Origin: a virus
Strand: one strand, 5' to 3'
Length of the DNA: 50,196 bases
Virus record (IMG/VR): IMGVR_UViG_3300006149_000020
Below, one piece after another: positions 7,754-35,457 of this stretch. Position numbers and translations under genes: made by a program. The notes beneath the pieces were generated by a model. It saw only the letters and a program-made list of their open reading frames with translations. It was not told where the DNA came from and ran no database searches. The stretch's first letter is position 1. Every line of letters starts with the position of its first letter.

Positions 7754-7926
7754 AAATTAAGCTGAGAGAATGTTGCTTGACCTGTGAACACTTTGACCCA
7801 TCCGGCATTAAGGGATTGAGTATGTACTACGCTCCGCCTTGCGGTTGTGGGGAGATAGAACGTGTGATTGCTTGCGGACATATGGCTGTTTGCAAGATGT
7901 ATCTGGAAAGCACGGGGAAGGAGTAG
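7741..7926 (+). CDS. Cys-rich small protein (61 aa) inside the minor-capsid insert
   Basis: GGGAAGGTG then ATG. MEKIKIKLRECCLTCEHFDPSGIKGLSMYYAPPCGCGEIERVIACGHMAVCKMY. Local GC is low. Confidence 0.45.
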   Translation: MEKIKIKLRECCLTCEHFDPSGIKGLSMYYAPPCGCGEIERVIACGHMAVCKMYLESTGKE

Positions 7927-7928
7927 GG

Positions 7929-8330
7929 ATGGGACTTTGTGCAACAGCTAAAGGATTGACCGCAGAAACAGAATTTAACTGCGGGTATTTGACATACGGA
8001 CTGTTTCTCCGAAATTTGGCGCGTACTTACAATGAGGAAATCGGGGAAATGTTCGAGAGTATGTGCGCCGGGAATCGATTGACTGAAGAACAAGAGAACA
8101 GGTGGAATGAAATCTGCAATGACGATTTGGATTTGCTACTTTTTCACTCCGATTGTGATGGAAAATTTACCCCGCAAGAGTGCCGACGGATTTACAATGC
8201 AATAAAAGACCTTTACATGGATATGCAAGGCCACAATTACATTGTGATGAAACCGTACAATATGCTCGAACACTGGAAAAGTATCTTTTTGCACTGTGCA
8301 AAAAGGCGGGTAACATTATTCTATTACTGA
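7929..8330 (+). CDS. Hypothetical protein (133 aa) inside the minor-capsid insert
   Basis: GGAAGGAG then ATG. ...LLLFHSDCDGKFTPQECRRIYNAIKDLYMDMQG... No family recognised. Low GC. Confidence 0.5.
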   Translation: MGLCATAKGLTAETEFNCGYLTYGLFLRNLARTYNEEIGEMFESMCAGNRLTEEQENRWNEICNDDLDLLLFHSDCDGKFTPQECRRIYNAIKDLYMDMQGHNYIVMKPYNMLEHWKSIFLHCAKRRVTLFYY

Positions 8331-8344
8331 CAGGAGGTGATGCA

Positions 8345-8746
8345 ATGGCAGAATACCCCGATTTTGAAAAGACGTGCGGCTACGGCTCCGTGACTGGCAT
8401 AGGCGGAGCCAACTGCAGGCACTCCTACTGGCCCTTTATAGAGGGCGTTTCGGAGCGCACTTACACCGATTCCGAGCTGGAGGCCATGAAGCCGGAAAAC
8501 CGGCCTAAAATCCAGTTTGAGGGCCGGGAATACGACGATTATCAGGCTACCCAGAAGCAGCGCCAGATCGAGCGCACCGTTCGCAAGCTGAAACGCCGCA
8601 AGACCGCTTTCGAGGCGGCGGGTCTGAAGGAGGACGCTCAGGCAACAAACATCCGCTTGCGGCGGCTGAGTAAGGAATACATCGAGTTCAGCAAGGCGGC
8701 GGGACTGCCGGAGCAACGGGAGAGAATGAAGGTGATTTACAAGTGA
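8345..8746 (+). CDS. Minor capsid protein, C-terminal fragment with its own RBS and ATG
   Basis: AGGAGGTGA then ATG. MAEYPDFEKTCGYGSVTGIGGANCRHSYWPFIEGVSERTY..., followed by a basic coiled C-terminus. Confidence 0.65.
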   Translation: MAEYPDFEKTCGYGSVTGIGGANCRHSYWPFIEGVSERTYTDSELEAMKPENRPKIQFEGREYDDYQATQKQRQIERTVRKLKRRKTAFEAAGLKEDAQATNIRLRRLSKEYIEFSKAAGLPEQRERMKVIYK

Positions 8747-21922: not shown

Positions 21923-23668
21923 ATGCCACAGATCGATCTGGGGAACGTAGTAGGCCCGCAGGGGCCGCAGGGAGAGACCGGCCCGCAGGGGCCTGCCGGA
22001 CCTGGCGGACCGCAGGGCGAACAGGGACCGAGGGGGCCGGAAGGGCCTGCCGGACCACAGGGCCCGCAGGGCATCCAGGGGCCTCCGGGCGCTCCGGCGG
22101 TCGTGAACGGGTCGAACACGCTGACCATCGCCGCCGGGGAGAAGATAGAGCTGGCGCAGAGCGGGGACACGCTGACCATCGACTGTACCGCCAGCTCCCG
22201 GAACATCCTGATCAACTGGGACTTCCGCAGGCCGGTGAACCGGAACGGAGGGACGCGATACACGGAGTCCGGGTACACCATAGACCGCTGGAAGATCGTG
22301 AACGGAGGATTGTCCCTCGGTGACGACGGGGCCGTCTCGCTGCTGAAGAACACGGATGCGGAGGCGCCGCGGAACTGCTTCCTCCAACTGATAGACGCGC
22401 CGGCGATGTACGCGGGGAAAACGCTCACGTTCTCTGTCCTGTGCAAAGACCTCCAAGGGTATCTCAAAGCTACGGTGTATGCCAATAAGGAGGGCGTCAC
22501 TGCGAACGGGCCATCCATATCGTCGGACGGGCTTGCCAGCGTCACGTTCACCATGGCGGAGGGCGTGGCCCCGACCGAGTTCCGGGTACATTGGCTATTG
22601 TCTCCTGGCGGGTCCTGCGTCCCCATCGCCGCCAAGCTGGAGCTGGGGGAGCGGCAGACCCTGGCCCGGCAGGTGGAAGGGGGATGGGAACTCATCGACC
22701 CGCCCGATTACGCGCTGCAATACGCCCTGTGCAGCCAGTACAGCCCGATCACCGGGGAGTGGGTGGGGAGCCGGCACAGCAACCAGAACTTGCTGGACAA
22801 CTGGTACCTTCTGGGCCCCATCGACCAAAGGGGAAAGACGGAGTATCAGAGTCCCGGATACACGATCGACAGGTGGCTCTACTGGGCAGAGAGCGGTACT
22901 GGTACATATACCATCAGACCTGTAGACAGTGGGCTGGAGATCCTGCCAGGAGAACCGATGAAATCGAACATCTGGGGACAGAGAGTCGATGGATTGAGTA
23001 AATTGAGGGGGAGAACGCTCACCTTTTCTATGCTGACCAGCACGAACGATCTGGCCTCCATCACCTATACGATACCGATGGCGGGAACGTTCGATTCTCC
23101 GAACGTCTTTTTTCAAGGTAAGAGAGGTTATCTGGACCTGCGGGCAAACGAAACCCATGTGGATGCTGATATCATGGAGGCCAGGTACATAACGAACAGC
23201 CTGAAGGAAAGCATCATCTTCGTCGCCGCCAAGCTGGAGCTGGGCACGGTCCAGACCCTGGCCCATAAGGAAGGGGACGCCTGGGTCCTGAACGACCCGC
23301 CCCCCAACAAGGCGCTGGAGTTGGCCAAGTGCCAGAGGTATCAGACGGTCTACAGCTACCCGTCCGGAAGCTTCTCGAACGCCACGTATATAGCGGTGGG
23401 GATCGCGACCAACTCGACCACAGCCAGGTTCTTCATCGAAACGCCTGTCCCGCTGCGCGCTCGTCCGGCTGTGGTCATAGATGGGTTCTATGTCGCACGC
23501 GGATCGTCAGACCGGGTGAAGGTGAGGGGAGCCACCGTCCTGTGGCCGCCCATCCAGGACAAGGTCGGAGTGCAGGTCACATGCGATGGGGCGAATTTCA
23601 CGGTGGGGGACGTCGTGTTCCTGGAATCGTTCAGCGGGGCAGCGCTCAGGCTGGACGCGAACTTATAA
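21923..23668 (+). CDS. Collagen-like tail fibre / receptor-binding protein with an internally duplicated domain
   Basis: N-terminal G-X-Y x16, then two ~190-aa copies: N(I/L)L(I/D)NW...GYTIDRW...AAKLELG..QTLA...DPP...C(S/Q)(Q/R)Y. Confidence 0.75.
21953..22096 (+). repeat. Collagen G-X-Y repeat block 2 (in-frame)
   Basis: aa 11-58: [48 protein letters not shown]. Confidence 0.85.
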
Positions 23669-24229: not shown

Positions 24230-24553
24230 ATGTCTGAGAACTGCAACCCGAACGACTGCCCCGTGTCTGCCCGTGTGGACGCATTGGAGAAGGAGTTCGA
24301 CCGCTATCGTGGCAACTCCTCCGAGACCCATCGCCTGATGTTCGACCGAATCGGGGCGTTGGAGCGGAGCGGGGCCGCGCTGGGGGAGAAACTGGACAGC
24401 ATCGACGAGAAACTGGACGGCCTGGCGGAGACCGCCAAGGCCCTGACGGAGAAGCCCGCGAAACGGTGGGACGGGTTGGTGGACAAGCTGATCTATGCCG
24501 CCGCGCTGGCGGTCGTGGCTTGGATCGCCGCCGGTATGCCTGGGTTGGGCTGA
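24230..24553 (+). CDS. XhlA-like lysis-associated membrane protein
   Basis: Coiled coil followed by a single C-terminal TM helix (LIYAAALAVVAWIAAGMPG). Immediately upstream of the holin. Confidence 0.6.
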   Translation: MSENCNPNDCPVSARVDALEKEFDRYRGNSSETHRLMFDRIGALERSGAALGEKLDSIDEKLDGLAETAKALTEKPAKRWDGLVDKLIYAAALAVVAWIAAGMPGLG

Positions 24554-24567
24554 GAAAGGAGATACCT

Positions 24568-24771
24568 ATGATGAGTGAAAAGACGAAGAAGTGGCTGAGA
24601 GCGGCGGCTGTCCGGGCCGTCAAGACCATGGCGCAGACGGCGGTGGCCACCATCGGGGCGTCGGCGGTGCTCACCGCCGTGGACTGGCCCATGGTGGCGT
24701 CGGCGTCGGTGCTGGCCGGGGTGCTGTCCCTGCTCACCTCCCTGGCGGGTCTGCCGGAGGTGGAGGCATGA
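24568..24771 (+). CDS. Holin
   Basis: 67 aa with two hydrophobic helices (AVRAVKTMAQTAVATIGASAVL / VASASVLAGVLSLLTSLAG). Overlaps the endolysin start (ATGA). Confidence 0.65.
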   Translation: MMSEKTKKWLRAAAVRAVKTMAQTAVATIGASAVLTAVDWPMVASASVLAGVLSLLTSLAGLPEVEA

Positions 24772-25550
24772 ACCTGCTGGAATGTCTGCTCACAGAAAAC
24801 CGGTGCTACAAGACCGGGGCGAAGATCAGGCCCAAAGGCGTGATGGTGCACTCCACCGGGGCCAACAACCCGATGCTCCGGCGGTATGTCCAGCCGGTGG
24901 CCACCACGCCGGAGAAGGATGAGCTGCTGTGGCAGCTCGGGGTGAACCGCAACGGTAACCACTGGAACCGACCTGGCCTGGACGTGTGCGTCCACGCGTT
25001 CATCGGGAAGCTGGATGACGGCAGCGTAGCGGCGGTGCAGACGCTGCCGTGGGACCATCGGGGCTGGCACGCGGGCACCGGCACCAGCGGCAGGAGCGCC
25101 AACGACACCCACATCTCTTTCGAGATCTGCGAGGACGATCTGACCGACCCGGCCTATTTTGGTCAGGCGTACCGGACCGCCGTGGAGCTGACAGCTATGC
25201 TGTGCGCTCAGTATGGGCTGGACCCCATGGCGGACGGCGTGGTGATCTGCCACCAGGACGGCTACCGCCGGGGGGTGGCCTCCAACCACGGGGACGTGTA
25301 CAACTGGTTCCCCAAGCATGGAAAAACGATGGACGACTTCCGGGCCGAGGTGGTCCGGGCGATGAAAGGAGACAGAGCGGACATGGTGTACTTCAAGACG
25401 CTGGACGATGTGCCCAGCTATTACAAGGCAGCGGTGTCCAAAGCGGTGGACAGGGGAGCGCTCAACGGCACCGGAGGCGGAGAGCTGAACGTCTCCGAGG
25501 ACCTGTGCAGGACCCTCACCGTGCTGGACCGGCTGGGGAAGCTGGATTGA
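24768..25550 (+). CDS. Endolysin, N-acetylmuramoyl-L-alanine amidase (Amidase_2/PGRP type)
   Basis: VMVHSTGANNP...WHAGTG...NDTHISFEICED...CHQDG...SNHGD, plus a C-terminal wall-binding-like tail. Confidence 0.85.
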   Translation: MNLLECLLTENRCYKTGAKIRPKGVMVHSTGANNPMLRRYVQPVATTPEKDELLWQLGVNRNGNHWNRPGLDVCVHAFIGKLDDGSVAAVQTLPWDHRGWHAGTGTSGRSANDTHISFEICEDDLTDPAYFGQAYRTAVELTAMLCAQYGLDPMADGVVICHQDGYRRGVASNHGDVYNWFPKHGKTMDDFRAEVVRAMKGDRADMVYFKTLDDVPSYYKAAVSKAVDRGALNGTGGGELNVSEDLCRTLTVLDRLGKLD

Positions 25551-25597: not shown

Positions 25598-25933
25598 ATG
25601 GATAACAAGAAAGAGAATCTTCCCATCAAGTTGGAATACAGCGACGTGCAGACCGTCCCGCTGGCGCTGCATGAGATGCACATGGCAAGGCTGAACCGGC
25701 TGCTTCGGTGGCTGTGCGTGGCCTGGGCGCTGTCTACGGCTTTCGTTGTCTTGGCCTTCGTATGGCTCTGGAACCAGTACGACTACGGAAGCAGCACGGA
25801 GCTGTCAGGGGTCTATAACCTGGTCGATTACCAGGGCAACGTGATCAGCTCCGACCTTTCCCCAGATGATGTCATCCGTATCCTGGAAGAGCTGAACGAT
25901 GGCAAGGATCAGGCGGTCCAAGACCAGAACTAA
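25598..25933 (+). CDS. Single-pass membrane protein after the endolysin
   Basis: TM helix LLRWLCVAWALSTAFVVLAFVWLW. AAAGGAG RBS. Confidence 0.5.
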   Translation: MDNKKENLPIKLEYSDVQTVPLALHEMHMARLNRLLRWLCVAWALSTAFVVLAFVWLWNQYDYGSSTELSGVYNLVDYQGNVISSDLSPDDVIRILEELNDGKDQAVQDQN

Positions 25934-25938
25934 GAAAA

Positions 25939-26187
25939 ATGGCAAAAGCAAGGGTACGCGCGTGCATAAGTGACACCGGCCTCACCCGTTCAGAATGGGA
26001 GGCGGCGATCCAGGAGGCGGCCCTTGGGATAGAGGACACCCGCATCGCGGAGCTGTATCTTTTGGATGCGGTCCCGCAGGTCGATATCGGCGAAGAGCTT
26101 GGCTTGAGCCGCAGCGCCATATCCAAGCGGCTGTTGAAGATCGTCGATAGGATAGAGCGCACGGCCAAAAGGCTGAATATGATCTGA
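25939..26187 (+). CDS. Sigma-70 region-4-like HTH protein
   Basis: RIAELYLLDAVPQVDIGEELGLSRSAISKRLLKIVDRI. Confidence 0.55.
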   Translation: MAKARVRACISDTGLTRSEWEAAIQEAALGIEDTRIAELYLLDAVPQVDIGEELGLSRSAISKRLLKIVDRIERTAKRLNMI

Positions 26188-26508: not shown

Positions 26509-27477
26509 TTAGGTCACCCGTGCCCCTTTGCTTCGGTTGCACCGCCAGCAGAGCGTTTGCAAGTTATCTTCGGTTGTAAGACCGCCTCTTGATACTGGGA
26601 TGATATGATCGATTTCTAGCAATAGATTTGGCTCCTGAGCTACTGATGCTCCGCACTGTTTACAAGCAAATCCATCGCGCGCTTTGATTTTTTGACGCAA
26701 TTTACTAGTCATGAGTGCGCGTTGTCCAGCAACACTTTTCCTAAACTTGATTTTTTCAGATAAATAAGAGACGAATTTATTTAGATTTGTAATGTCCATT
26801 ACGATATCACATTGTATGGAAGTGTTTCCGCCAGGACTGATGTATTGGAACACATACTTTGGGAAATGTTCAGTGCTGAAATCTATGATATCAAATCCAA
26901 GTTCTCGTTCGATTTTCTTTTTGCAAAATGTTCGAATCAATGCCGGAATATCCTTTTCTATGCTCAAAAGGATGCTCTCCCGTTCTTTTTGCAATGCTAC
27001 TTTTCCATCTTCTGCCGCCTCGAGATTGTTTAGAAGTGATTCAAACTTTTCCAATGTCTCTTCATCTGCGCTGATATGGAAGTATTTGCAAACGTATTTG
27101 AATGGCTCTTTTCTTGCGCTGTCACATACTGTTCGAGAACAATTGTGGATATTGGGAGCATATTTTTGTTTTTTCAATTCGGGCCTTTTGACATTCCATC
27201 TGCTTTTATCATGGTAATAAGACACACCAGAATCTAGTTTGTTCGCTTCAAGTGGTGTATCTTTCAGCTCTTCGATATGCCTATTCAATTCGTTGCAATC
27301 ATCGATATAAGACTGTATCCTACTTTTTATAGAAAGAAACCGTTTACTTTTGAAATAAATCGAAATGTATATCTTCCAAACGAGAAAAAGGGCGGCAATC
27401 AAAATCAGCACAGGCCAGATAGTGGATAGCATACTGACAATAAGTAAAATCAAAAAAAATATAAGCAGCCATTGCAT
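26509..27477 (-). CDS. Membrane-anchored HNH endonuclease-domain protein
   Basis: N-terminal hydrophobic segment LLIFFLILLIVSMLSTIWPVLILIAALFLVW. C-terminal HNH CKQCG...LEIDHIIPVSRGG...NLQTLCWRCNRSKG. GAAGGAGAG RBS. AT-rich island. Confidence 0.8.
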   Translation of the reverse strand: MQWLLIFFLILLIVSMLSTIWPVLILIAALFLVWKIYISIYFKSKRFLSIKSRIQSYIDDCNELNRHIEELKDTPLEANKLDSGVSYYHDKSRWNVKRPELKKQKYAPNIHNCSRTVCDSARKEPFKYVCKYFHISADEETLEKFESLLNNLEAAEDGKVALQKERESILLSIEKDIPALIRTFCKKKIERELGFDIIDFSTEHFPKYVFQYISPGGNTSIQCDIVMDITNLNKFVSYLSEKIKFRKSVAGQRALMTSKLRQKIKARDGFACKQCGASVAQEPNLLLEIDHIIPVSRGGLTTEDNLQTLCWRCNRSKGARVT

Positions 27478-29867: not shown

Positions 29868-29893
29868 GAGGCTGGGGAGACCCAGCCTCTTTT
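29868..29893 (+). terminator. Rho-independent terminator
   Basis: GAGGCTGGG-gaga-CCCAGCCTC followed by TTTT. Confidence 0.7.
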
Positions 29894-30028
29894 CATCTTT
29901 CCCATAACTTCACATATCTTCACCGAAACGCCGCACAAGGATCGTTCAGATATGATATGCTCGGACCATAGGAGGACATAGAGATCAGGCAGCAAGGCTG
30001 CCATGCCGATAGGCGTCTCTGTGTCCTC

Positions 30029-30502
30029 CTATTCATAGATGCTCGTATATGCCCCCATCCCGGAAAAGTCCATCTCCCCAGAGAACGTGCCTTTATATGG
30101 CGCGTCTACCGGGCCGGAAAGCTTTTCGAACATGATGAGCGCATACTTATCGCCTTCACGTAGCTCGATCTCGTCATTCGATACGTTCGTCAGGCGGAAA
30201 AAGATCTTCGTGTGGTGTCCCGGCTGATATATCGGAGCATCTAGGGACAAACCCTGACGGATCCTGCTGTTTTTCAGCGACAAGCGAGCTATCATATCGT
30301 TCGGTAGCTTGATGTTCTCCTTAGTGCCTACGAAAACCGATTCTCCGCTTTTCAAAGTGACGTGAGAAGTCAGGGCCTCTCGGGAGACGAAATGATCCGC
30401 ACGCAGATCGTACCCGATGCTAGTGAGACAATCCGGCTCGTGGTTCTCAATCAGATCGTGCTTCGATATCCAGTTGTGTATCTCGCGGTCTGTCAGCACC
30501 AT
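30029..30502 (-). CDS. dCTP deaminase / dUTPase-fold protein (divergent)
   Basis: By-eye alignment to E. coli Dcd: MVLTDREIHNWI.., LKSGESVFVGTKENIKLPNDMIARL, YQPGHHTKIFFRLTN, ALIMFEKLSGP. Confidence 0.7.
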   Translation of the reverse strand: MVLTDREIHNWISKHDLIENHEPDCLTSIGYDLRADHFVSREALTSHVTLKSGESVFVGTKENIKLPNDMIARLSLKNSRIRQGLSLDAPIYQPGHHTKIFFRLTNVSNDEIELREGDKYALIMFEKLSGPVDAPYKGTFSGEMDFSGMGAYTSIYE

Positions 30503-30594
30503 ATATACCCCTCCTCGCTGATGGTACGCTTATTATACACCGAACGATGAAGATCGTAAAGCAAGAAAAATACGCTTCGATTTGGAGGTGCCCG

Positions 30595-30981
30595 ATGGGC
30601 TACGCCTATTACGACCCGAACCCCGCCGGGCGGTCCGTCGGGGACTGCACCGTCCGGGCCATCTCGAAAGCTCTGGGGCAGACGTGGGAAGAGACCTATG
30701 TGGGGCTGGCCTTGGAAGGCTTCCGGTGTGGCGACCTGCCCAATGCCGACGATGTGTGGGGGAACTACCTGAAAGCGCATGGCTTCACCCGGCACTGGCT
30801 CCCGGACGAGTGCCCGGAGTGCTACACTGTGGCGGCGTTCGCGCAGGACGAGCCCCAGGGCATCTACGTCTTGTCCATGCCGGGCCGCCATGTGGTGACT
30901 GTGGTGGATGGGAGATATTTCGACTCATGGGACAGCGGGGGAGAGGTCCCCACGTACTACTGGATGAAGGAGCGTCGATGA
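30595..30981 (+). CDS. Hypothetical protein, possible papain-like Cys/His fold
   Basis: TGGAGGTG then ATG. GDCTVRAISKALG...GRHVVTVVDGRYFDSWDSG. An upstream in-frame ATG at 30547 is possible. Confidence 0.5.
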   Translation: MGYAYYDPNPAGRSVGDCTVRAISKALGQTWEETYVGLALEGFRCGDLPNADDVWGNYLKAHGFTRHWLPDECPECYTVAAFAQDEPQGIYVLSMPGRHVVTVVDGRYFDSWDSGGEVPTYYWMKERR

Positions 30982-31475
30982 TGGCATACCCTACCTATCA
31001 ATATCCGGGCTACCAGCCCACTCCGGTCTACTATCCGAGCCCTGTGCCCGACCAGCTCGCCAAGCTCCGGCAGAACCAGATGCAGCAGCCGATGATGCAG
31101 GGGCCGCAGATGCCGCAGCAGCCGGTCCAAGCTGTGCCCCAGCCTCAGCAGGCCGACCCCGGCGGGATCATCTGGGTGCAGGGAGATGCCGGAGCAAAAG
31201 CGTACATGGTGGCCCCTGGGAATACGGTCCCGCTGTGGGACAGCGAGGACCAGGTGATCTATCTGAAATCGGTGGACATGTCCGGTATGCCGTCCATGCG
31301 GGTACTGGATTACACGGAGCGCAGCATCGCACAGCCACAGCGCCAGGAGCAAGCTGCGCCCAAGATAGACCTGACCCCATACATCACCCGGGACGAGCTG
31401 GAGGACATCCTGGCCGAGCGCCTGAAACGGCCTGGGAGGACCGCCAAACCAAAGGAGGAAGCGAACGATGAGTAA
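30978..31475 (+). CDS. Gln/Pro-rich hypothetical protein
   Basis: ATGA-coupled. MMAYPTYQYPGYQPTPVYYPSPVP...QQPMMQGPQMPQQPVQ...IIWVQGDAGAKAYMVAPGNTVPLWDSEDQVIYLKSVD. Confidence 0.55.
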   Translation: MMAYPTYQYPGYQPTPVYYPSPVPDQLAKLRQNQMQQPMMQGPQMPQQPVQAVPQPQQADPGGIIWVQGDAGAKAYMVAPGNTVPLWDSEDQVIYLKSVDMSGMPSMRVLDYTERSIAQPQRQEQAAPKIDLTPYITRDELEDILAERLKRPGRTAKPKEEANDE

Positions 31476-31710
31476 TCCCATTTTCCAGGCCCTGGGCGGG
31501 CCGCGCGGACAGCAGGGAGGCCCTATGGGCATGATGCAGGCTTTCCAGCAGTTCATGCAGCAGAATCAGGGCAAGGACCCAAATGAGATGATCCGGCAGA
31601 TGCTTTCCTCCGGCAAGCTCAACCAGCAGCAGCTCGACCAGGCCCAACAGATGGCGAAGCAGATGGAGGGGCCGTTGAGCGGGATGAAAGCGATGTTTGG
31701 TTTCAAATAA
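31468..31710 (+). CDS. Gln/Met-rich small protein (80 aa)
   Basis: AAAGGAGGAA RBS; 8-nt overlap. ...GGPMGMMQAFQQFMQQNQGKDPNEMIRQMLSSGKLNQQQLDQAQQMAKQ. Confidence 0.5.
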   Translation: MSNPIFQALGGPRGQQGGPMGMMQAFQQFMQQNQGKDPNEMIRQMLSSGKLNQQQLDQAQQMAKQMEGPLSGMKAMFGFK

Positions 31711-31763
31711 GTCTAAAAATGCGGCCGCATTTTAGAAAATACATCAACAAAGGAGAGTAAACT

Positions 31764-32645
31764 ATGTCTCTTGGTAGTGAAAGCGGCGTTCCTGCCGTCA
31801 TGAATGTGGCTCCCACCGGCTCCGGCTACAATGGGAACGGCGGCGGCTGGGGCGGTGACTGGGGAGCTTGGATCATCCTGTTCCTCATCTTCGGCATGTT
31901 CGGCTGGGGCGGCATGGGCGGTTTCGGCGGGTTCGGCGGCGGCGCCGGCCTCCATGGCGCTCTGACCCGCGCCGACCTGTGCAGCGAGTTCAACTTCAAC
32001 GGACTGGAGAACGCCGTGCGCGGGGTGCAGCAGGGAATCTGCGACAGCGCCTATGCCCTCAACAACTCGATCAACGGCCTGGGCGTGAACGTCATGCAGG
32101 GATTCCACGGTGTGGACAATGCTATCTGTAACCTGGGCTTCACCACCCAGCAGGGCTTCAACGCCACCCAGGTGGCCATGATGCAGGGCAACAATGCTCT
32201 TCAAGCGCAGCTCGCCCAGTGCTGCTGCGACAACCGGGTGGGCCAGATGCAGCTCGCCAACCAGATGCAGGCGGACACCTGTGCCCTGACCAACACCATG
32301 AACAACAACACCCGGGACACTTTGGCGAACCAGGACGCCAACGCTCGCGCCATCTTGGACGCCCTGACTGCCCAGCGGCTGGAGGCCAAGGACGAGCGCA
32401 TCGCCGCTCAGGCCGCCCAGATCCAGGCGCTCCAGCTCAGCGCCTCCCAGGCGCAGCAGAACGCCGCGATCGGCGCGATGATCTCCGCCAGCGAGGCCAC
32501 CATCCTGCGCCGCACCGGCGCGGAGTGCCCCACTCCTGCCTACGTGGTGCAGCCGCCCACTCCGGTGAACTTCCCCACCAACTGCTGCGGCACGTTCAAC
32601 GGCTGGGGCAACAACGGCGGCTGTAACGGCGGCTGCGGGTGCTGA
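31764..32645 (+). CDS. Gly/Trp-rich membrane protein with an Asn/Gln/Cys-rich body and a Cys/Gly tail
   Basis: GGGWGGDWGAWIILFLIFGMFGWGGMGGFGGFGGGAG...QCCCDN...NCCGTFNGWGNNGGCNGGCGC. AAAGGAGAG RBS. Confidence 0.55.
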   Translation: MSLGSESGVPAVMNVAPTGSGYNGNGGGWGGDWGAWIILFLIFGMFGWGGMGGFGGFGGGAGLHGALTRADLCSEFNFNGLENAVRGVQQGICDSAYALNNSINGLGVNVMQGFHGVDNAICNLGFTTQQGFNATQVAMMQGNNALQAQLAQCCCDNRVGQMQLANQMQADTCALTNTMNNNTRDTLANQDANARAILDALTAQRLEAKDERIAAQAAQIQALQLSASQAQQNAAIGAMISASEATILRRTGAECPTPAYVVQPPTPVNFPTNCCGTFNGWGNNGGCNGGCGC

Positions 32646-32763
32646 CACGATCCAACGCATTTTTTGACGCAGTCTGATGCGTTGGCTCCCCGGAACGACG
32701 GGTGATCATTTCGGGGCGGCGGACCATGTGTCTGCTGCCCCTGACATTTAGGAGGTATGATCT

Positions 32764-33162
32764 ATGGCCTGTAGACCTGTCTGCAAGCTCTGTGACCGGC
32801 TGGTGATCAGCCAGGCCGTAACCTTTACCGGCGGCAATCTGGCGATCGACCTGCCCGCCGGGAACTATAACAACAAAGAAAAGTACTGCATCGTGGTGGC
32901 CCAGGCGATCCCTGCTGCCACGACTATCAACGCGCCTGTGGTGGTCACCATCGGCGGCGGAACGGAGCTCTATCCTTTGACCGACCGTTGCTGCGCACAG
33001 CTCACCGCCTGCGCCATCCGGACCAGGACGCGGTATGCCACAGTGGTGTCCACCAGCGGGACCGGAGGCACGTTCAAGCTTCTGGGCAACGCCTGCCCGT
33101 GCCCCACCAACAACTTGGCCAGCATCAACGGGACGGCCCCCGCCGCCGCGCCTACGGCCTGA
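32764..33162 (+). CDS. Cys-rich hypothetical protein (132 aa)
   Basis: MACRPVCKLCDRLV...DRCCAQLTACAI...GNACPCPTNN. AGGAGG RBS. Confidence 0.5.
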   Translation: MACRPVCKLCDRLVISQAVTFTGGNLAIDLPAGNYNNKEKYCIVVAQAIPAATTINAPVVVTIGGGTELYPLTDRCCAQLTACAIRTRTRYATVVSTSGTGGTFKLLGNACPCPTNNLASINGTAPAAAPTA

Positions 33163-33178
33163 AAGGAGAGACGACATC

Positions 33179-33610
33179 ATGGAAAAACTTTACGACCTGA
33201 AGGACAAGCTGTGCGAGGAGCTGGAGGAACTCGCCCGCAAGCAGGAGATGGGAGCGGGGGATCTGGAAGTCATCCACAAGCTCACCGACACCATCAAGAA
33301 CATCGATAAGATCTGTATGCTGGAGGACGAAGGCGGCTACAGCGAAGCTGTGGATGGCGGCGACTACGGCCAGGGCTCCAGCTATGCCGGCCGGGGCAGA
33401 CGCAGCCCTAGAGGCCGGTACAGCCGAGACGACGGGCGGGACGGCAGCATGGGCGGCTACAGCTCCCGCCGCCGGGACAGCCGTGGCCGCTACAGCCGCG
33501 ACGATGGCCGCAGCGAGATGATGGAGCACCTGGAGATGGCGATGGACACCGCCACCGAAAAGGACCGGGAGACCATCAAGCGCTTCATGCGCCAGTTGGA
33601 GAACGCCTAA
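33179..33610 (+). CDS. Hypothetical protein with an Arg/Ser/Asp/Gly-rich repeat core
   Basis: Helical N- and C-termini. Core GRGRRSPRGRYSRDDGRDGSMGGYSSRRRDSRGRYSRDDGR, with RGRYSRDDGR appearing twice. Confidence 0.55.
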   Translation: MEKLYDLKDKLCEELEELARKQEMGAGDLEVIHKLTDTIKNIDKICMLEDEGGYSEAVDGGDYGQGSSYAGRGRRSPRGRYSRDDGRDGSMGGYSSRRRDSRGRYSRDDGRSEMMEHLEMAMDTATEKDRETIKRFMRQLENA

Positions 33611-33622
33611 GGGGGTGCGGCG

Positions 33623-33961
33623 ATGTCCGCGCCGAACCTCAAAGAGATAGAATGGGCCATCTCTGAGTTGGAGCAGGAGGAGAGCTCCGAAGACCGGTAC
33701 ACGCTGCTGGCTGCGCTCTACACCTGCCGGAACGAGATGCTTGGCCTGTCCGCTCCCCAACCGCAGATCGCGGCCTACTCGGAAGCGCCGGCTCCGGCCC
33801 AAGAACGGCTGGGCCATTATGGCGACAGCGACTTCCTAAGAGCGGTAGCGGGGAAGGACCCGTCGGACGCATGGGCGGTCATGGATGAGCTCATGGAGAC
33901 GCTCCAGGTGGTGAACCAGAGGGCCTATGACAGCGTGATGCGGAAGCTGGGGAGATTGTGA
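33623..33961 (+). CDS. Hypothetical protein (112 aa), partner of the previous gene
   Basis: MSAPNLKEIEWAISELEQEESSEDRYTLLAALYTCRNEM...DSDFLRAVAGKDP...MDELMETLQVVNQRAYDSVMRKL. Confidence 0.5.
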   Translation: MSAPNLKEIEWAISELEQEESSEDRYTLLAALYTCRNEMLGLSAPQPQIAAYSEAPAPAQERLGHYGDSDFLRAVAGKDPSDAWAVMDELMETLQVVNQRAYDSVMRKLGRL

Positions 33962-33962
33962 C

Positions 33963-33988
33963 GAGGAGGGGCTGAGAGGCCCCTCCTC
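33963..33988. terminator. Bidirectional hairpin between convergent genes
   Basis: GAGGAGGGGC-tgagag-GCCCCTCCTC. Confidence 0.55.
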
Positions 33989-33993
33989 CTACT

Positions 33994-34039
33994 ATTACAT
34001 AAAATATCTTCTTCGGTAGATGAACATACTTTATGTAAT
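33994..34039. other. Candidate attP core (inverted repeat next to the integrase 3' end)
   Basis: ATTACATAAA-N26-TTTATGTAAT in the AT-rich gap 15 nt from the integrase stop. Confidence 0.35.
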
Positions 34040-34053
34040 AACTGAAAGCAAAA

Positions 34054-35394
34054 TCAAAAAGCCAAATCAAACTCTATGTGTCGATCTGGATAAACCCGTA
34101 TCTCCTTTATGATCGCCCTCCAAATGTTCCGCTTTTGCTCTTGGCTCAACTCCTGATAGTCTTTTGCCCAACCATCCGTTGTTACGATTTCTAACCCAGA
34201 AAGATCGGGTTCATGTGCGGGCCTGTCCATTTTGGATAGCTCATCGAGCCGAGTCGAAAGCGAAGCATGGTCAAGCTTGTATTCGTCCAATGAGATGAGG
34301 TCGTTTACATAAAGCTCTTTCAAACGGCGTAACTTCCCGCGCACTGTAGCTATCTCTACCTTATAGTCTTTCCTTTTGGCGGCTTCCATTTCTGTGCTGC
34401 GCTCAAATCTGCGTCGCTCGACCTTTTCCGTCAATGTTCCCATGATGTACTGCTCGACCTTTTTTTCTGCTATGCAAACTTTATTTTGACATTTCCCGCC
34501 CATGATATAACGAGTGGGGCAGGTATAGTATTGATACGAGCACGTGGAGGCCCGACGGGTCCCCATCCTGCGTCCACATTCAGGGCACTTGATGAGTCCG
34601 GAAAACAAAAAGATGTTGTTCTTTGGGGATTTTCTCACTACCTTTCGTCTCATCCCCTGTATTCTTTCAAATTCTTCTTTGGTCAAATACGGAGGCGTCA
34701 TGCCATCTGCGCCAAAGTACCTCCCATAGTAAGCGGTGCAGCCCATCATTTTATGCACTCTTTGATAGGTGAGGTTTATCCCAAATCGCTCTGCCACATC
34801 TCGTTGTGCCGATGCGATCGACCCAGATGAAAGGAACGATCCAAAAAACGTACTGACGGCCTTTTCGGTCTTTGGATCCTTGACGATCTTCTTTTCCTCG
34901 ATGATGTATCCATAAGGCATTTGACCGGTAAGTGGCTCCAGTTTGTTCCGCTTACTTTCGAATACAGCCTTGATGCGCTCTGAGGTCCTGTCCGCCTCGT
35001 CCTGAGCCACGCTGAGCATGATGTTTATCTTCAGCCGCCCAGACGCGGTGGAGGTGTCGTAATCCTCCTGGATGGTACGCCAGTCCACATGGCACTTCTC
35101 CAAGATCTCCTGGACCTTGTAGTACTCTGCGATATTGCGGAACCATCGGTCCAGCTTGGTGAACACGATGAGCTCGCCCCTTCCGGCCTGGGCGTCTAGG
35201 AGGAGCCGTTGCAGCTCCGGACGCTTCTTGGCAGGCTTCCGGGCGGAAATGCCCGCGTCTATGTAGACGCCCACCACCTTGTGTCCGTTTGTCTTGGCCC
35301 ATTCCTCCAGGGCTGTGACCTGCGCCTCGATAGACAGTCCGTGGACCGCCTGCTCCTCGGTGGATACGCGGGCGTATAGGAAAACTTGCTTCAT
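34054..35394 (-). CDS. Large serine recombinase (integrase)
   Basis: Resolvase N-domain LYARVSTEEQ...GLSIEAQ, a recombinase domain, a Cys cluster (CPECGRRMG...CPTRY...C) and a coiled C-terminus. An in-frame ATG at 35412 is an alternative. Confidence 0.9.
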   Translation of the reverse strand: MKQVFLYARVSTEEQAVHGLSIEAQVTALEEWAKTNGHKVVGVYIDAGISARKPAKKRPELQRLLLDAQAGRGELIVFTKLDRWFRNIAEYYKVQEILEKCHVDWRTIQEDYDTSTASGRLKINIMLSVAQDEADRTSERIKAVFESKRNKLEPLTGQMPYGYIIEEKKIVKDPKTEKAVSTFFGSFLSSGSIASAQRDVAERFGINLTYQRVHKMMGCTAYYGRYFGADGMTPPYLTKEEFERIQGMRRKVVRKSPKNNIFLFSGLIKCPECGRRMGTRRASTCSYQYYTCPTRYIMGGKCQNKVCIAEKKVEQYIMGTLTEKVERRRFERSTEMEAAKRKDYKVEIATVRGKLRRLKELYVNDLISLDEYKLDHASLSTRLDELSKMDRPAHEPDLSGLEIVTTDGWAKDYQELSQEQKRNIWRAIIKEIRVYPDRHIEFDLAF

Positions 35395-35457
35395 AGCTTT
35401 AGATCCTTCCATCCACTAATCACCTCCCTTCATAATACCTGATTCTGCTTCCGCGCT

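Follow-up and report, generated by a model that had tools for sequence, protein, structure and literature searches.

The DNA analyzed here is the IMG/VR virus record IMGVR_UViG_3300006149_000020 (50,196 nt in full, hereafter the window), and the subject of this study is a cassette of seven genes, g1–g7, on its + strand. The cassette proved to be an accessory operon, conserved and self-contained, that phages and prophages of gut and rumen Clostridia carry downstream of their lysis genes, and it is organized separately from the virion, replication and lysogeny modules. As a tentative reading, with a probability of about 0.3, we propose that its products form a complex anchored in the membrane that targets the host membrane or envelope during lytic growth, in support of the neighboring lysis genes. 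The seven genes are as follows.

g1, 30595..30981 (alternative ATG at 30547), + strand, 128 aa, predicted cytoplasmic papain-like cysteine peptidase
g2, 30978..31475, + strand, 165 aa
g3, 31468..31710, + strand, 80 aa
g4, 31764..32645, + strand, 293 aa
g5 (type A), 32764..33162, + strand, 132 aa
g6, 33179..33610, + strand, helix, disordered core, helix
g7, 33623..33961, + strand, acidic helical protein

A dCTP-deaminase-like gene (dcd) lies before g1 and a serine integrase gene after g7. A first-pass annotation of the window had described seven tightly coupled + strand open reading frames (ORFs), a 9-bp hairpin at 32652–32685 and a number of peptide motifs, and all of these were present as described. 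By the ORF coordinates, g1 and g2 overlap by 4 nt and g2 and g3 by 8 nt, while gaps of 16 nt and 12 nt separate g5 from g6 and g6 from g7.

Relatives were collected by searching IMG/VR with g4 (30 loci) and GTDB genomes with a g6 profile (80 loci), and the annotated phage records Dulem virus 33, Butyrivibrio virus Ceridwen and Bajarodcaudo virus 5 were added. Gene order was then scored by tblastn with four divergent query sets at loci carrying two or more cassette genes. The order g1-g2-g3-g4-g5-g6-g7 was kept at 111 of the 113 loci, the two exceptions being ORF-calling artefacts; all seven genes stood in order at 60 loci, and many of the others were truncated by contig ends. According to the record titles, the hosts are mostly Oscillospiraceae and other Clostridia (Acutalibacter, Oscillibacter, Pseudoflavonifractor, Lawsonibacter, Butyricicoccus, Ruminococcus and Subdoligranulum), plus Butyrivibrio; a few bins labelled Bacteroidota or Collinsella were probably mis-binned. 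The position of the cassette was likewise constant, on the late-gene strand after the holin, the lysin, a small transmembrane (TM) protein and a helix-turn-helix (HTH) gene that we call htx. The usual upstream neighbors in relatives are the lysin, the small TM protein, htx and an optional ORF, g0. A search of plasmids with g4 returned one match only, on a large Vescimonas replicon.

The phages that share the cassette have little else in common. At E<1e-5, the window and Ceridwen matched only in TerL (34% identity), in part of an antirepressor-like ORF and in five cassette genes, with g3 matching Ceridwen only in the locus-level search, and the endolysins of cassette phages belong to different families (amidase, CHAP, glucosaminidase and C39_2). 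Because Ceridwen shares so little with the window beyond TerL and the cassette, the latter is a self-contained module and not part of the virion or replication machinery. The first-pass annotation had suggested a dedicated function apart from virion assembly and replication, which the fixed gene order across phages otherwise without detectable similarity bears out. Such an order, kept across phages sharing almost nothing else, implies strong selection and therefore probably a need specific to these hosts.

Ceridwen also bears on when the cassette may act. Its cassette is complete, it has no annotated integrase, all its annotated genes lie on one strand, and its authors observed it only in the lytic cycle (PMC7372960). 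A role in the lytic cycle is favored because the linkage and strand of the cassette are constant, it is complete in this phage lacking an annotated integrase, and it is nearly universal in the group. Bajarodcaudo virus 5 carries htx, g2, g3, g4 and a g5A-like gene, and no integrase was found in the 14-kb stretch examined. Because this virus lacks g1, g6 and g7, genes g2–g5 look like a minimal core.

None of the seven products had a characterized homologue in Pfam, NCBIfam, PADLOC, PHROGs or the PDB. No match to Pfam, NCBIfam or PADLOC was obtained for g1–g7, and all their PHROGs matches, given below by number, are annotated "unknown function"; the sole PADLOC hit was a chance-level one of g4 to a ZorA coiled coil (E 0.09). 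Among 146 diverse relatives, Pfam gave only chance-level singletons and PHROGs either nothing or "unknown function". Sequence and profile searches of the PDB with g1, g5A (two profiles), g5B, g6 and g7 found nothing better than E 0.1, and the literature on Ceridwen, on Josephin proteins and phages and on endospore appendages held no description of the cassette that we could find. The cassette matches no known kind of system, in negative searches below HHpred-grade sensitivity and without a usable model of g5, and among its proteins only g1 is assignable to a fold.

The product that would anchor the proposed complex is g4. It alone carries a hydrophobic segment of TM grade, whose best 19-residue hydropathy window reaches 1.71 at residue 37; no other product has such a segment, and none has an obvious signal peptide. 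A conserved N-tail of g4 is followed by a Gly/Trp/Phe-rich hydrophobic segment (about residues 33–58) and then by a long Asn/Gln-rich helical body with a CCC motif that is invariant in the alignment, ending in a Pro-rich and then Cys/Gly-rich tail. It matches phrog_16490 at 1.6e-65. In the mechanism that we propose, g4 would be inserted so that its short N-tail faces outward, while its coiled coil and Cys-rich tail lie on the cytoplasmic side and may recruit g5 there; the bulk of the complex is placed on that side because the products other than g4 are without TM-grade segments. The Gln/Met/Pro-rich g2 and g3 and the helical pair g6/g7 could serve as assembly partners or chaperones, and g1 might process a cassette component or a host target. 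The assembled complex would then act on the host membrane or envelope, rather than being classical lysogenic-conversion cargo. In a more elaborate and speculative form, which we hold unlikely as a whole, the cassette would be a Clostridia-specific phage machine with g4 as stalk, an interchangeable g5 head, g2/g3 and g6/g7 as assembly factors and g1 as protease, which would complete envelope disruption or remodel the membrane after the endolysin has acted, under the control of a new class of leader RNA.

The partners assigned to g4 have unusual compositions. The g2 protein (95 loci; phrog_21718) has a Tyr/Pro/Gln-rich head, a conserved strand-rich core (IIWVQG...LDYTER) and a helical Lys-rich tail, and g3 (phrog_22984) is a basic, Gln/Met/Gly-rich protein with 21% Q, 14% M and a pI of 9.8. 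The g6 protein (106 loci; phrog_28802) consists of a helix, an Arg/Ser/Gly/Asp/Tyr-rich disordered core with RGRYSRDDGR twice, and a second helix. The g7 gene always lies directly downstream of g6, and its product has a pI of 4.5 and a conserved C-terminal motif, WAVMDELMETLQVVN in the window.

The g5 slot is dimorphic, with type A, as in the window, at 29 loci and an unrelated type B at 75, and profile-profile comparison of the two showed no relationship. The two types are swapped between cassettes that share 80–87% identity in g6 and up to 85% in g4. Type A, a strand-rich protein with an N-terminal Cys motif, shows the highest conservation in the cassette (median pairwise identity 75% vs 40–58% for the other genes); its family comprises 5673 clusters at 90% identity and only 351 at 50%, and a domain-fusion profile search of 1.84 billion representatives indicated a compact stand-alone family. 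Longer matches (Big_2/YARHG, CHAP, ROK kinase, small terminase) joined a partial g5A to unrelated sequence, looked chimeric and were not used. An Fe-S cluster bound by the CxxxCxxC motif of g5A was also considered and rejected, because these cysteines vary across the wider family. Type B is likewise strand-rich, about 140 aa long, and matches phrog_20016.

These properties of g5 raise the question of whether the cassette encodes a virion-associated accessory, with g4 and g5 forming cysteine cross-linked fibers or decorations for which endospore appendage subunits or BclA-type heads would be the closest analogy. Two strand-rich proteins of 130–150 aa in the same slot, the N-terminal Cys motif of g5A together with the invariant CCC and Cys-rich tail of g4, and the location on the late-gene strand after the tail-fiber and lysis genes would all suit such parts. 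We consider this quite improbable, since the virion genes of cassette phages have no detectable similarity beyond TerL, which is unusual for structural parts, no sequence match to a solved structure or a Pfam family (DUF3992 included) was found, the g5A cysteines vary across the family, and g4 has a membrane segment. Disulfide cross-linking would also be doubtful in strictly anaerobic hosts.

In contrast to the other products, g1 can be described at the level of its fold. Its start is most likely the ATG at 30595 rather than that at 30547, because GGAGG stands 7 nt upstream of the former, with none before 30547, and most homologues are 127 aa long and begin at the equivalent Met. The AlphaFold2 (AF2) model of g1 had a mean predicted local distance difference test score (pLDDT) of 82.6, with C34 opening a helix (33–43) and H115 opening a strand (115–120). 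C34, H115 and D126 were invariant in an alignment of 45 sequences, in which D129 was conserved in at least 90%, and the Cys, His and Asp are also found in the Ceridwen and Dulem virus 33 homologues. The top PDB match in Foldseek was Josephin-2 (6pgv; prob 0.93, E 5.6e-3, with a TM-score of only 0.39), and the leader protease of foot-and-mouth disease virus (FMDV; 4qbb) appeared lower among the structural matches. By its modeled fold and its triad, g1 is a small papain-like (clan CA) Cys-His-Asp peptidase, and peptidase activity may be inferred from these. The idea of a Cys...His...Asp peptidase in the first-pass annotation thus holds at the fold level. The protein has no TM segment and matches phrog_3754; no Pfam or NCBIfam match was found even at E<=1, Peptidase_C39 and C39_2 included.

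Outside the cassette, the g1 fold is common to many uncharacterized phage proteins in BFVD, from phages of many hosts, and g1 homologues stand alone in Tsamsa-like phages of Bacillus, in Geobacillus GBK2 and in Lak phages. In Bacillus phage Izhevsk, the gene lies among early genes, beside an Ocr-like anti-restriction gene and a Ser/Thr kinase, and in GBK2 it lies just before recE/recT. This company would be expected if the cassette were an early host-take-over or anti-defense operon, transcribed by host RNA polymerase right after infection, in which a host protein of defense or regulation is cleaved or deconjugated by g1, while the small acidic and disordered products neutralize host factors. 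The breadth of the fold, a deubiquitinase as best PDB match, the small and acidic g7 and the HTH gene adjoining the cassette fit this explanation as well. It is nevertheless unlikely in our view, for anti-defense loci usually vary in content, whereas the cassette is rigid and tightly spaced at more than 100 loci; the minimal core g2–g5 does not contain g1, and neither a membrane coiled-coil protein of 293 aa nor Gln/Asn-rich proteins are typical of anti-defense genes.

The GC content of the cassette is 0.61–0.64, within the range of most of the structural region (0.54–0.65), and differs both from the low-GC inserts at 26–28 kb (neighboring inserts, 0.40–0.47) and from the integrase. This agrees with the earlier statement that its composition matches the phage core and supports the view that it is no recent foreign insert. 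Two elements lie in its internal spacers.

31716..31733, no strand assigned, 18-nt perfect palindrome AAAATGCGGCCGCATTTT in the g3–g4 spacer
32652..32685, + strand, hairpin CCAACGCAT-N16-ATGCGTTGG in the g4–g5 spacer, 9-bp stem, 16-nt loop, no U-tract

In relatives, free-standing ORFs resembling homing endonucleases of the HNH/AP2 type interrupt cassettes at g3|g4, g4|g5 and g5|g6, and in the window these insert-prone junctions are those with long spacers and palindromes. Such inserts were located at L001 9038–9589 (− strand; annotated "endonuclease"), L032 7433–8227, L045 6716–7393 (−), L064 5515–6369 (−) and 7796–8407, L084 6901–7479 (−), L099 7861–8523 and L110 3060–3899 (−). The optional g0, which the window does not have, is a Cys-knuckle peptide of 25–40 aa (CxCGGxGxCxxCP), a helical "RLIAAG..." protein of about 50 aa, or both fused; it was found at L016 5502–5591, L038 5434–5610, L044, L012, L050, L049, L007, L018, L042 and L021.

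The region upstream of g1 contains the following elements.

29868..29889, no strand assigned, GC-rich hairpin, T-rich on both sides, ending the upstream + strand unit (antirepressor, 83-aa TM ORF); terminator-scan match on the − strand
29967..30034, + strand, structured leader RNA, a three-way junction with stem P1 (about 14–18 bp) enclosing hairpins P2 and P3
30029..30502, − strand, dcd, dCTP-deaminase-like gene (Pfam DCD, 1.2e-13)
30532..30560, − strand, dcd promoter, sigma-70-like TTTACG-17-TATAAT (promoter scan, 10/12 matches)

The covariance model R1 matched the window at 29967–30054 (69.9 bits, E 3e-15), where the folding energy was -44.4 kcal/mol (z -6.0). In relatives, the leader is about 90 nt long, with a 14-bp outer stem (5' AGGAGG... 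/ ...CCUCCU 3') enclosing two short hairpins and followed on its 3' side by a U-tract, a ribosome-binding site (RBS) and the start codon; the outer stem together with the U-tract is a predicted terminator. When 15 distinct sequences were examined with RNAalifold and a pair count, in an alignment that was itself fitted to the model, 94.8% of cells were paired and 12 of 22 pairs showed compensatory changes; none of 500 shuffles reached the observed covariation, and slid controls paired at about 50%. The leader also occurs at L045 5009–5103, L015 459–552, L016 5434–5525 and 13 more loci, and is confined to one sub-lineage of cassette loci to which the window belongs. Rfam searches of the window and of 10 loci gave no match at the gathering score and only chance-level ones at E<=1.

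The first-pass annotation had read the interval before g1 as a divergent control region of the cassette's own, shared with dcd. This did not hold in detail, as the conserved leader lies upstream of dcd (29967–30034), which is inserted into it. The spacer between dcd and g1 has the stated length of about 90 bp (92 bp) only with the start at 30595. Past the outer stem the window sequence diverges, and the ancestral sequence appears to resume at "...TTTGGAGGTGCCCG ATG" of g1. We read dcd as an insertion into the leader U-tract, between P1 and the g1 RBS and outside the conserved module, because the dcd stop codon directly adjoins P1 at its 3' end, dcd has its own promoter, the sequence resumes at g1, and only the closest relatives (L002, L003 and L031) carry it, all other loci being without dcd. 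The insertion looks recent. Transcription of dcd would converge with that of the cassette, and the hairpin at 29868..29889 probably also ends the − strand dcd transcript.

More widely, about 20 of 25 distinct htx–g1 spacers carry a GC hairpin with a T-run, directly followed by an extended -10-like box (such as TGTTATAAT or TATGCGAAAAT), with no obvious -35 in these spacers. This arrangement supports the view that the hairpin and T-run would end the lysis/htx unit in relatives, the cassette being a transcription unit of its own. At the other end, the first-pass annotation had the operon end at a hairpin in front of the integrase, which is indeed a perfect one, and a second repeat follows it.

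33963..33988, + strand, operon-closing hairpin after g7, perfect 10-bp GC-rich stem
33993..34040, no strand assigned, inverted repeat, candidate attP, 22 nt, imperfect (86% complementary), 4-nt center, 48 bp in total

The repeat follows the closing hairpin, precedes the 3' end of the large serine integrase gene (34054–35412, − strand) and is a candidate attP of that integrase; an S24 repressor-like gene follows on the − strand, the Peptidase_S24 match being on a homologue of this window gene. In the isolate genome of Acutalibacter sp. 1XD8-36, g7 is directly followed by host feoA, mscL and trkA/trkH, which places the cassette at the attR end of this prophage. A g6–g7 pair without g1–g5 was also observed at L094 2645–10600, directly beside host feoAB-like genes, in the context of an apparent degraded prophage with a tyrosine-integrase-like ORF, a holin-like ORF and unrelated genes.

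These features are what would be seen if the cassette were a module that the prophage expresses for lysogenic conversion or superinfection exclusion. Host RNA polymerase would then transcribe it in the lysogen from the cassette's own promoter, g4 and its partners would be at the membrane, blocking DNA entry by other phages or altering the host surface or physiology, and the dimorphic g5 would reflect an arms race. Its place at the extreme attR end beside host feoA/mscL/trkAH, and in the window beside the candidate attP and the integrase, speaks for it, as do the moron-like succession of terminator, -10-like box and closing hairpin, the typical accessory inserts around it (a low-GC HNH/TM gene, antirepressors and dcd), the g6–g7 pair kept in an apparent prophage remnant beside host feoAB, and the swapping of g5 alleles. 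We regard this as a serious possibility, although one that falls short of being probable: Ceridwen has the whole cassette, no annotated integrase and a lytic cycle only (PMC7372960), Bajarodcaudo virus 5 has no integrase in its 14-kb stretch, PADLOC gave no matches, and a near-universal module in fixed order is unlike sporadic accessory insertions. Of the lysogenic-conversion slot named in the first-pass annotation, the location at the attR end in lysogens was therefore retained, while the near-universal presence of the module and its completeness in Ceridwen do not suit such a slot.

Several points weigh against the membrane-anchored lytic complex that we prefer. No product has a homologue of known function, and the mechanism is drawn from composition and context alone; interaction among the products is itself inferred, the topology of g4 is judged only from charge distribution and from partners without TM segments, and the AF2 model of g5 failed (pLDDT 42). 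The scan of the window found no + strand sigma-70 promoter beside g1, between dcd and g1. The autonomous promoter after a terminator, the attR-end position, the inserted neighbors (dcd, HNH) and the g6–g7 pair in the apparent prophage remnant would be no less well explained by expression in the lysogen. Finally, lone g1 homologues beside early or anti-restriction genes in Tsamsa-like phages and GBK2 point to host take-over rather than lysis.

The first-pass annotation had itself offered two functions: a peptidase with Cys/Gly-rich secreted substrates, similar to bacteriocins or to ribosomally synthesized and post-translationally modified peptides (RiPPs), or material like that of the spore coat or exosporium. 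The papain-like triad of g1, the Gly/Cys/Asn-rich tail of g4, the Cys-knuckle mini-ORF g0 (25–40 aa) before g1 in some relatives, and the many spore formers among the hosts lend these some appeal, as does the sigma-r4-like gene with a small TM protein upstream, an arrangement reminiscent of the uviA/uviB-bcn locus of Clostridium perfringens. We nevertheless give both very little credence. With regard to the former, g1 has no match to C39 or another peptidase family, searches found no maturase, transporter or immunity gene in the window and no signal peptide on any product, and no modification family of the YcaO, LanM or radical SAM type matched among the seven products or the 146 relatives, nor is there a transporter gene in the cassette or its flanks. 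Besides, g4, at 293 aa, is far longer than any RiPP precursor, and the g5 cysteines are not conserved across the wider family. With regard to the latter, no coat or exosporium Pfam family (CotJ, CotH substrates, BclA_C, DUF3992) matched the window proteins or 146+61 relatives, including the 146 diverse members, and a phage of Butyrivibrio fibrisolvens, a host regarded as non-sporulating, carries the cassette.

As read from its ORFs and translations, the window is a siphophage-like genome with a tape-measure-sized ORF of 898 aa, and an XhlA-like ORF, a holin and an amidase at 24230–25550. Its tail-fiber-like protein (21923–23668) has a collagen Gly-X-Y repeat at the N-terminus, and collagen-repeat proteins also precede the lysis genes in the relatives L035 and L038. 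Two genes after the endolysin recur beside the cassette in relatives.

25598..25933, + strand, small membrane protein of 111 aa after the endolysin (ORF and translation)
25939..26187, + strand, htx, 82-aa HTH protein resembling sigma-70 region 4 / KorA

Homologues of the former ("tm111" and "tm83") stand just upstream of htx at many loci, as a recurrent upstream partner. In Pfam, htx matched KorA (1.1e-4) and Sigma70_r4 (4.6e-4), both below the cutoff, and its homologue in Bajarodcaudo virus 5 passes the Sigma70_r4 cutoff at 26.7 bits. It was found upstream of g1 at 40 loci and lies directly upstream of the cassette in relatives, whereas in the window inserted genes separate the two: a TM-HNH gene (−), a putative ribbon-helix-helix-like protein, two antirepressor-like genes, the 83-aa TM ORF and the dcd-like gene (−). 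The first of these (26509–27477, − strand, GC 0.40–0.47) encodes 322 aa with a TM segment at the N-terminus and an HNH nuclease domain at the C-terminus; in PADLOC it matched HNH models of the REase_II, PtuB and ZorE type, and it is probably an inserted accessory or defense-like gene. Among relatives, a gene of the Acb2/Tad1-hairpin family (an anti-CBASS/anti-Thoeris sponge family) was observed just before the holin and CHAP lysin in L035/L037/L038 (3394–3774), and a Twister-sister ribozyme (RF02681, 67.7 bits) downstream of the cassette in a related viral contig (L011 5623–5708, − strand).

The cassette represents a large block of viral dark matter, with 5673 clusters at the 90% identity level for g5 alone. 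It can be studied in culture, both with Butyrivibrio virus Ceridwen on B. fibrisolvens DSM 3071 and with the lysogens of Acutalibacter isolates. Furthermore, the leader is an RNA motif supported by covariation and absent from Rfam, and offers a handle on the regulation of the operon.

Some known systems bear a partial likeness to the cassette or to parts of it. Josephin/MJD deubiquitinases and the FMDV leader protease have the same order as modeled for g1, with Cys at an N-terminal helix, then His in a strand, then Asp; g1 differs from clan CA peptidases in being only about 127 aa long, in its TM-score of 0.39 and in having no sequence-level match to a peptidase family, and from C39 bacteriocin-processing domains in having no fused transporter. 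XhlA of PBSX, i-spanins and phi29 p16.7 combine one hydrophobic segment with a long helical region near the lysis genes, as g4 does, but g4 has no sequence similarity to them and adds a Gly/aromatic-rich anchor, the invariant CCC and a Cys-rich tail, and the window already has the XhlA-like ORF, holin and amidase described above, distinct from g4. The endospore appendage subunits of Bacillus (Ena, DUF3992) and the C-terminal domains of BclA appear similar to g5A in size (120–150 aa), strand-richness and N-terminal Cys motif; they differ in that g5A has no Pfam or PDB sequence match and no family-wide conservation of its cysteines.

The leader resembles terminator-type attenuators and riboswitch-like three-way junctions, in that an outer stem and U-tract stand directly before the RBS, the loops of the two inner hairpins are conserved, and the stems show compensatory changes. 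It differs from them in matching no Rfam family, and in the window the dcd insertion replaces the U-tract. With phage morons, the cassette shares a -10-like promoter after a terminator, a closing hairpin, a position at the attR end, and an adjoining candidate attP and integrase. Morons are typically sporadic single genes. An autonomous promoter and terminator at the prophage end are thus found here as in morons, whereas sporadic and temperate-only presence is not: the cassette is a fixed operon of 7–10 genes at more than 100 loci, carried by unrelated backbones that include a phage with no annotated integrase.

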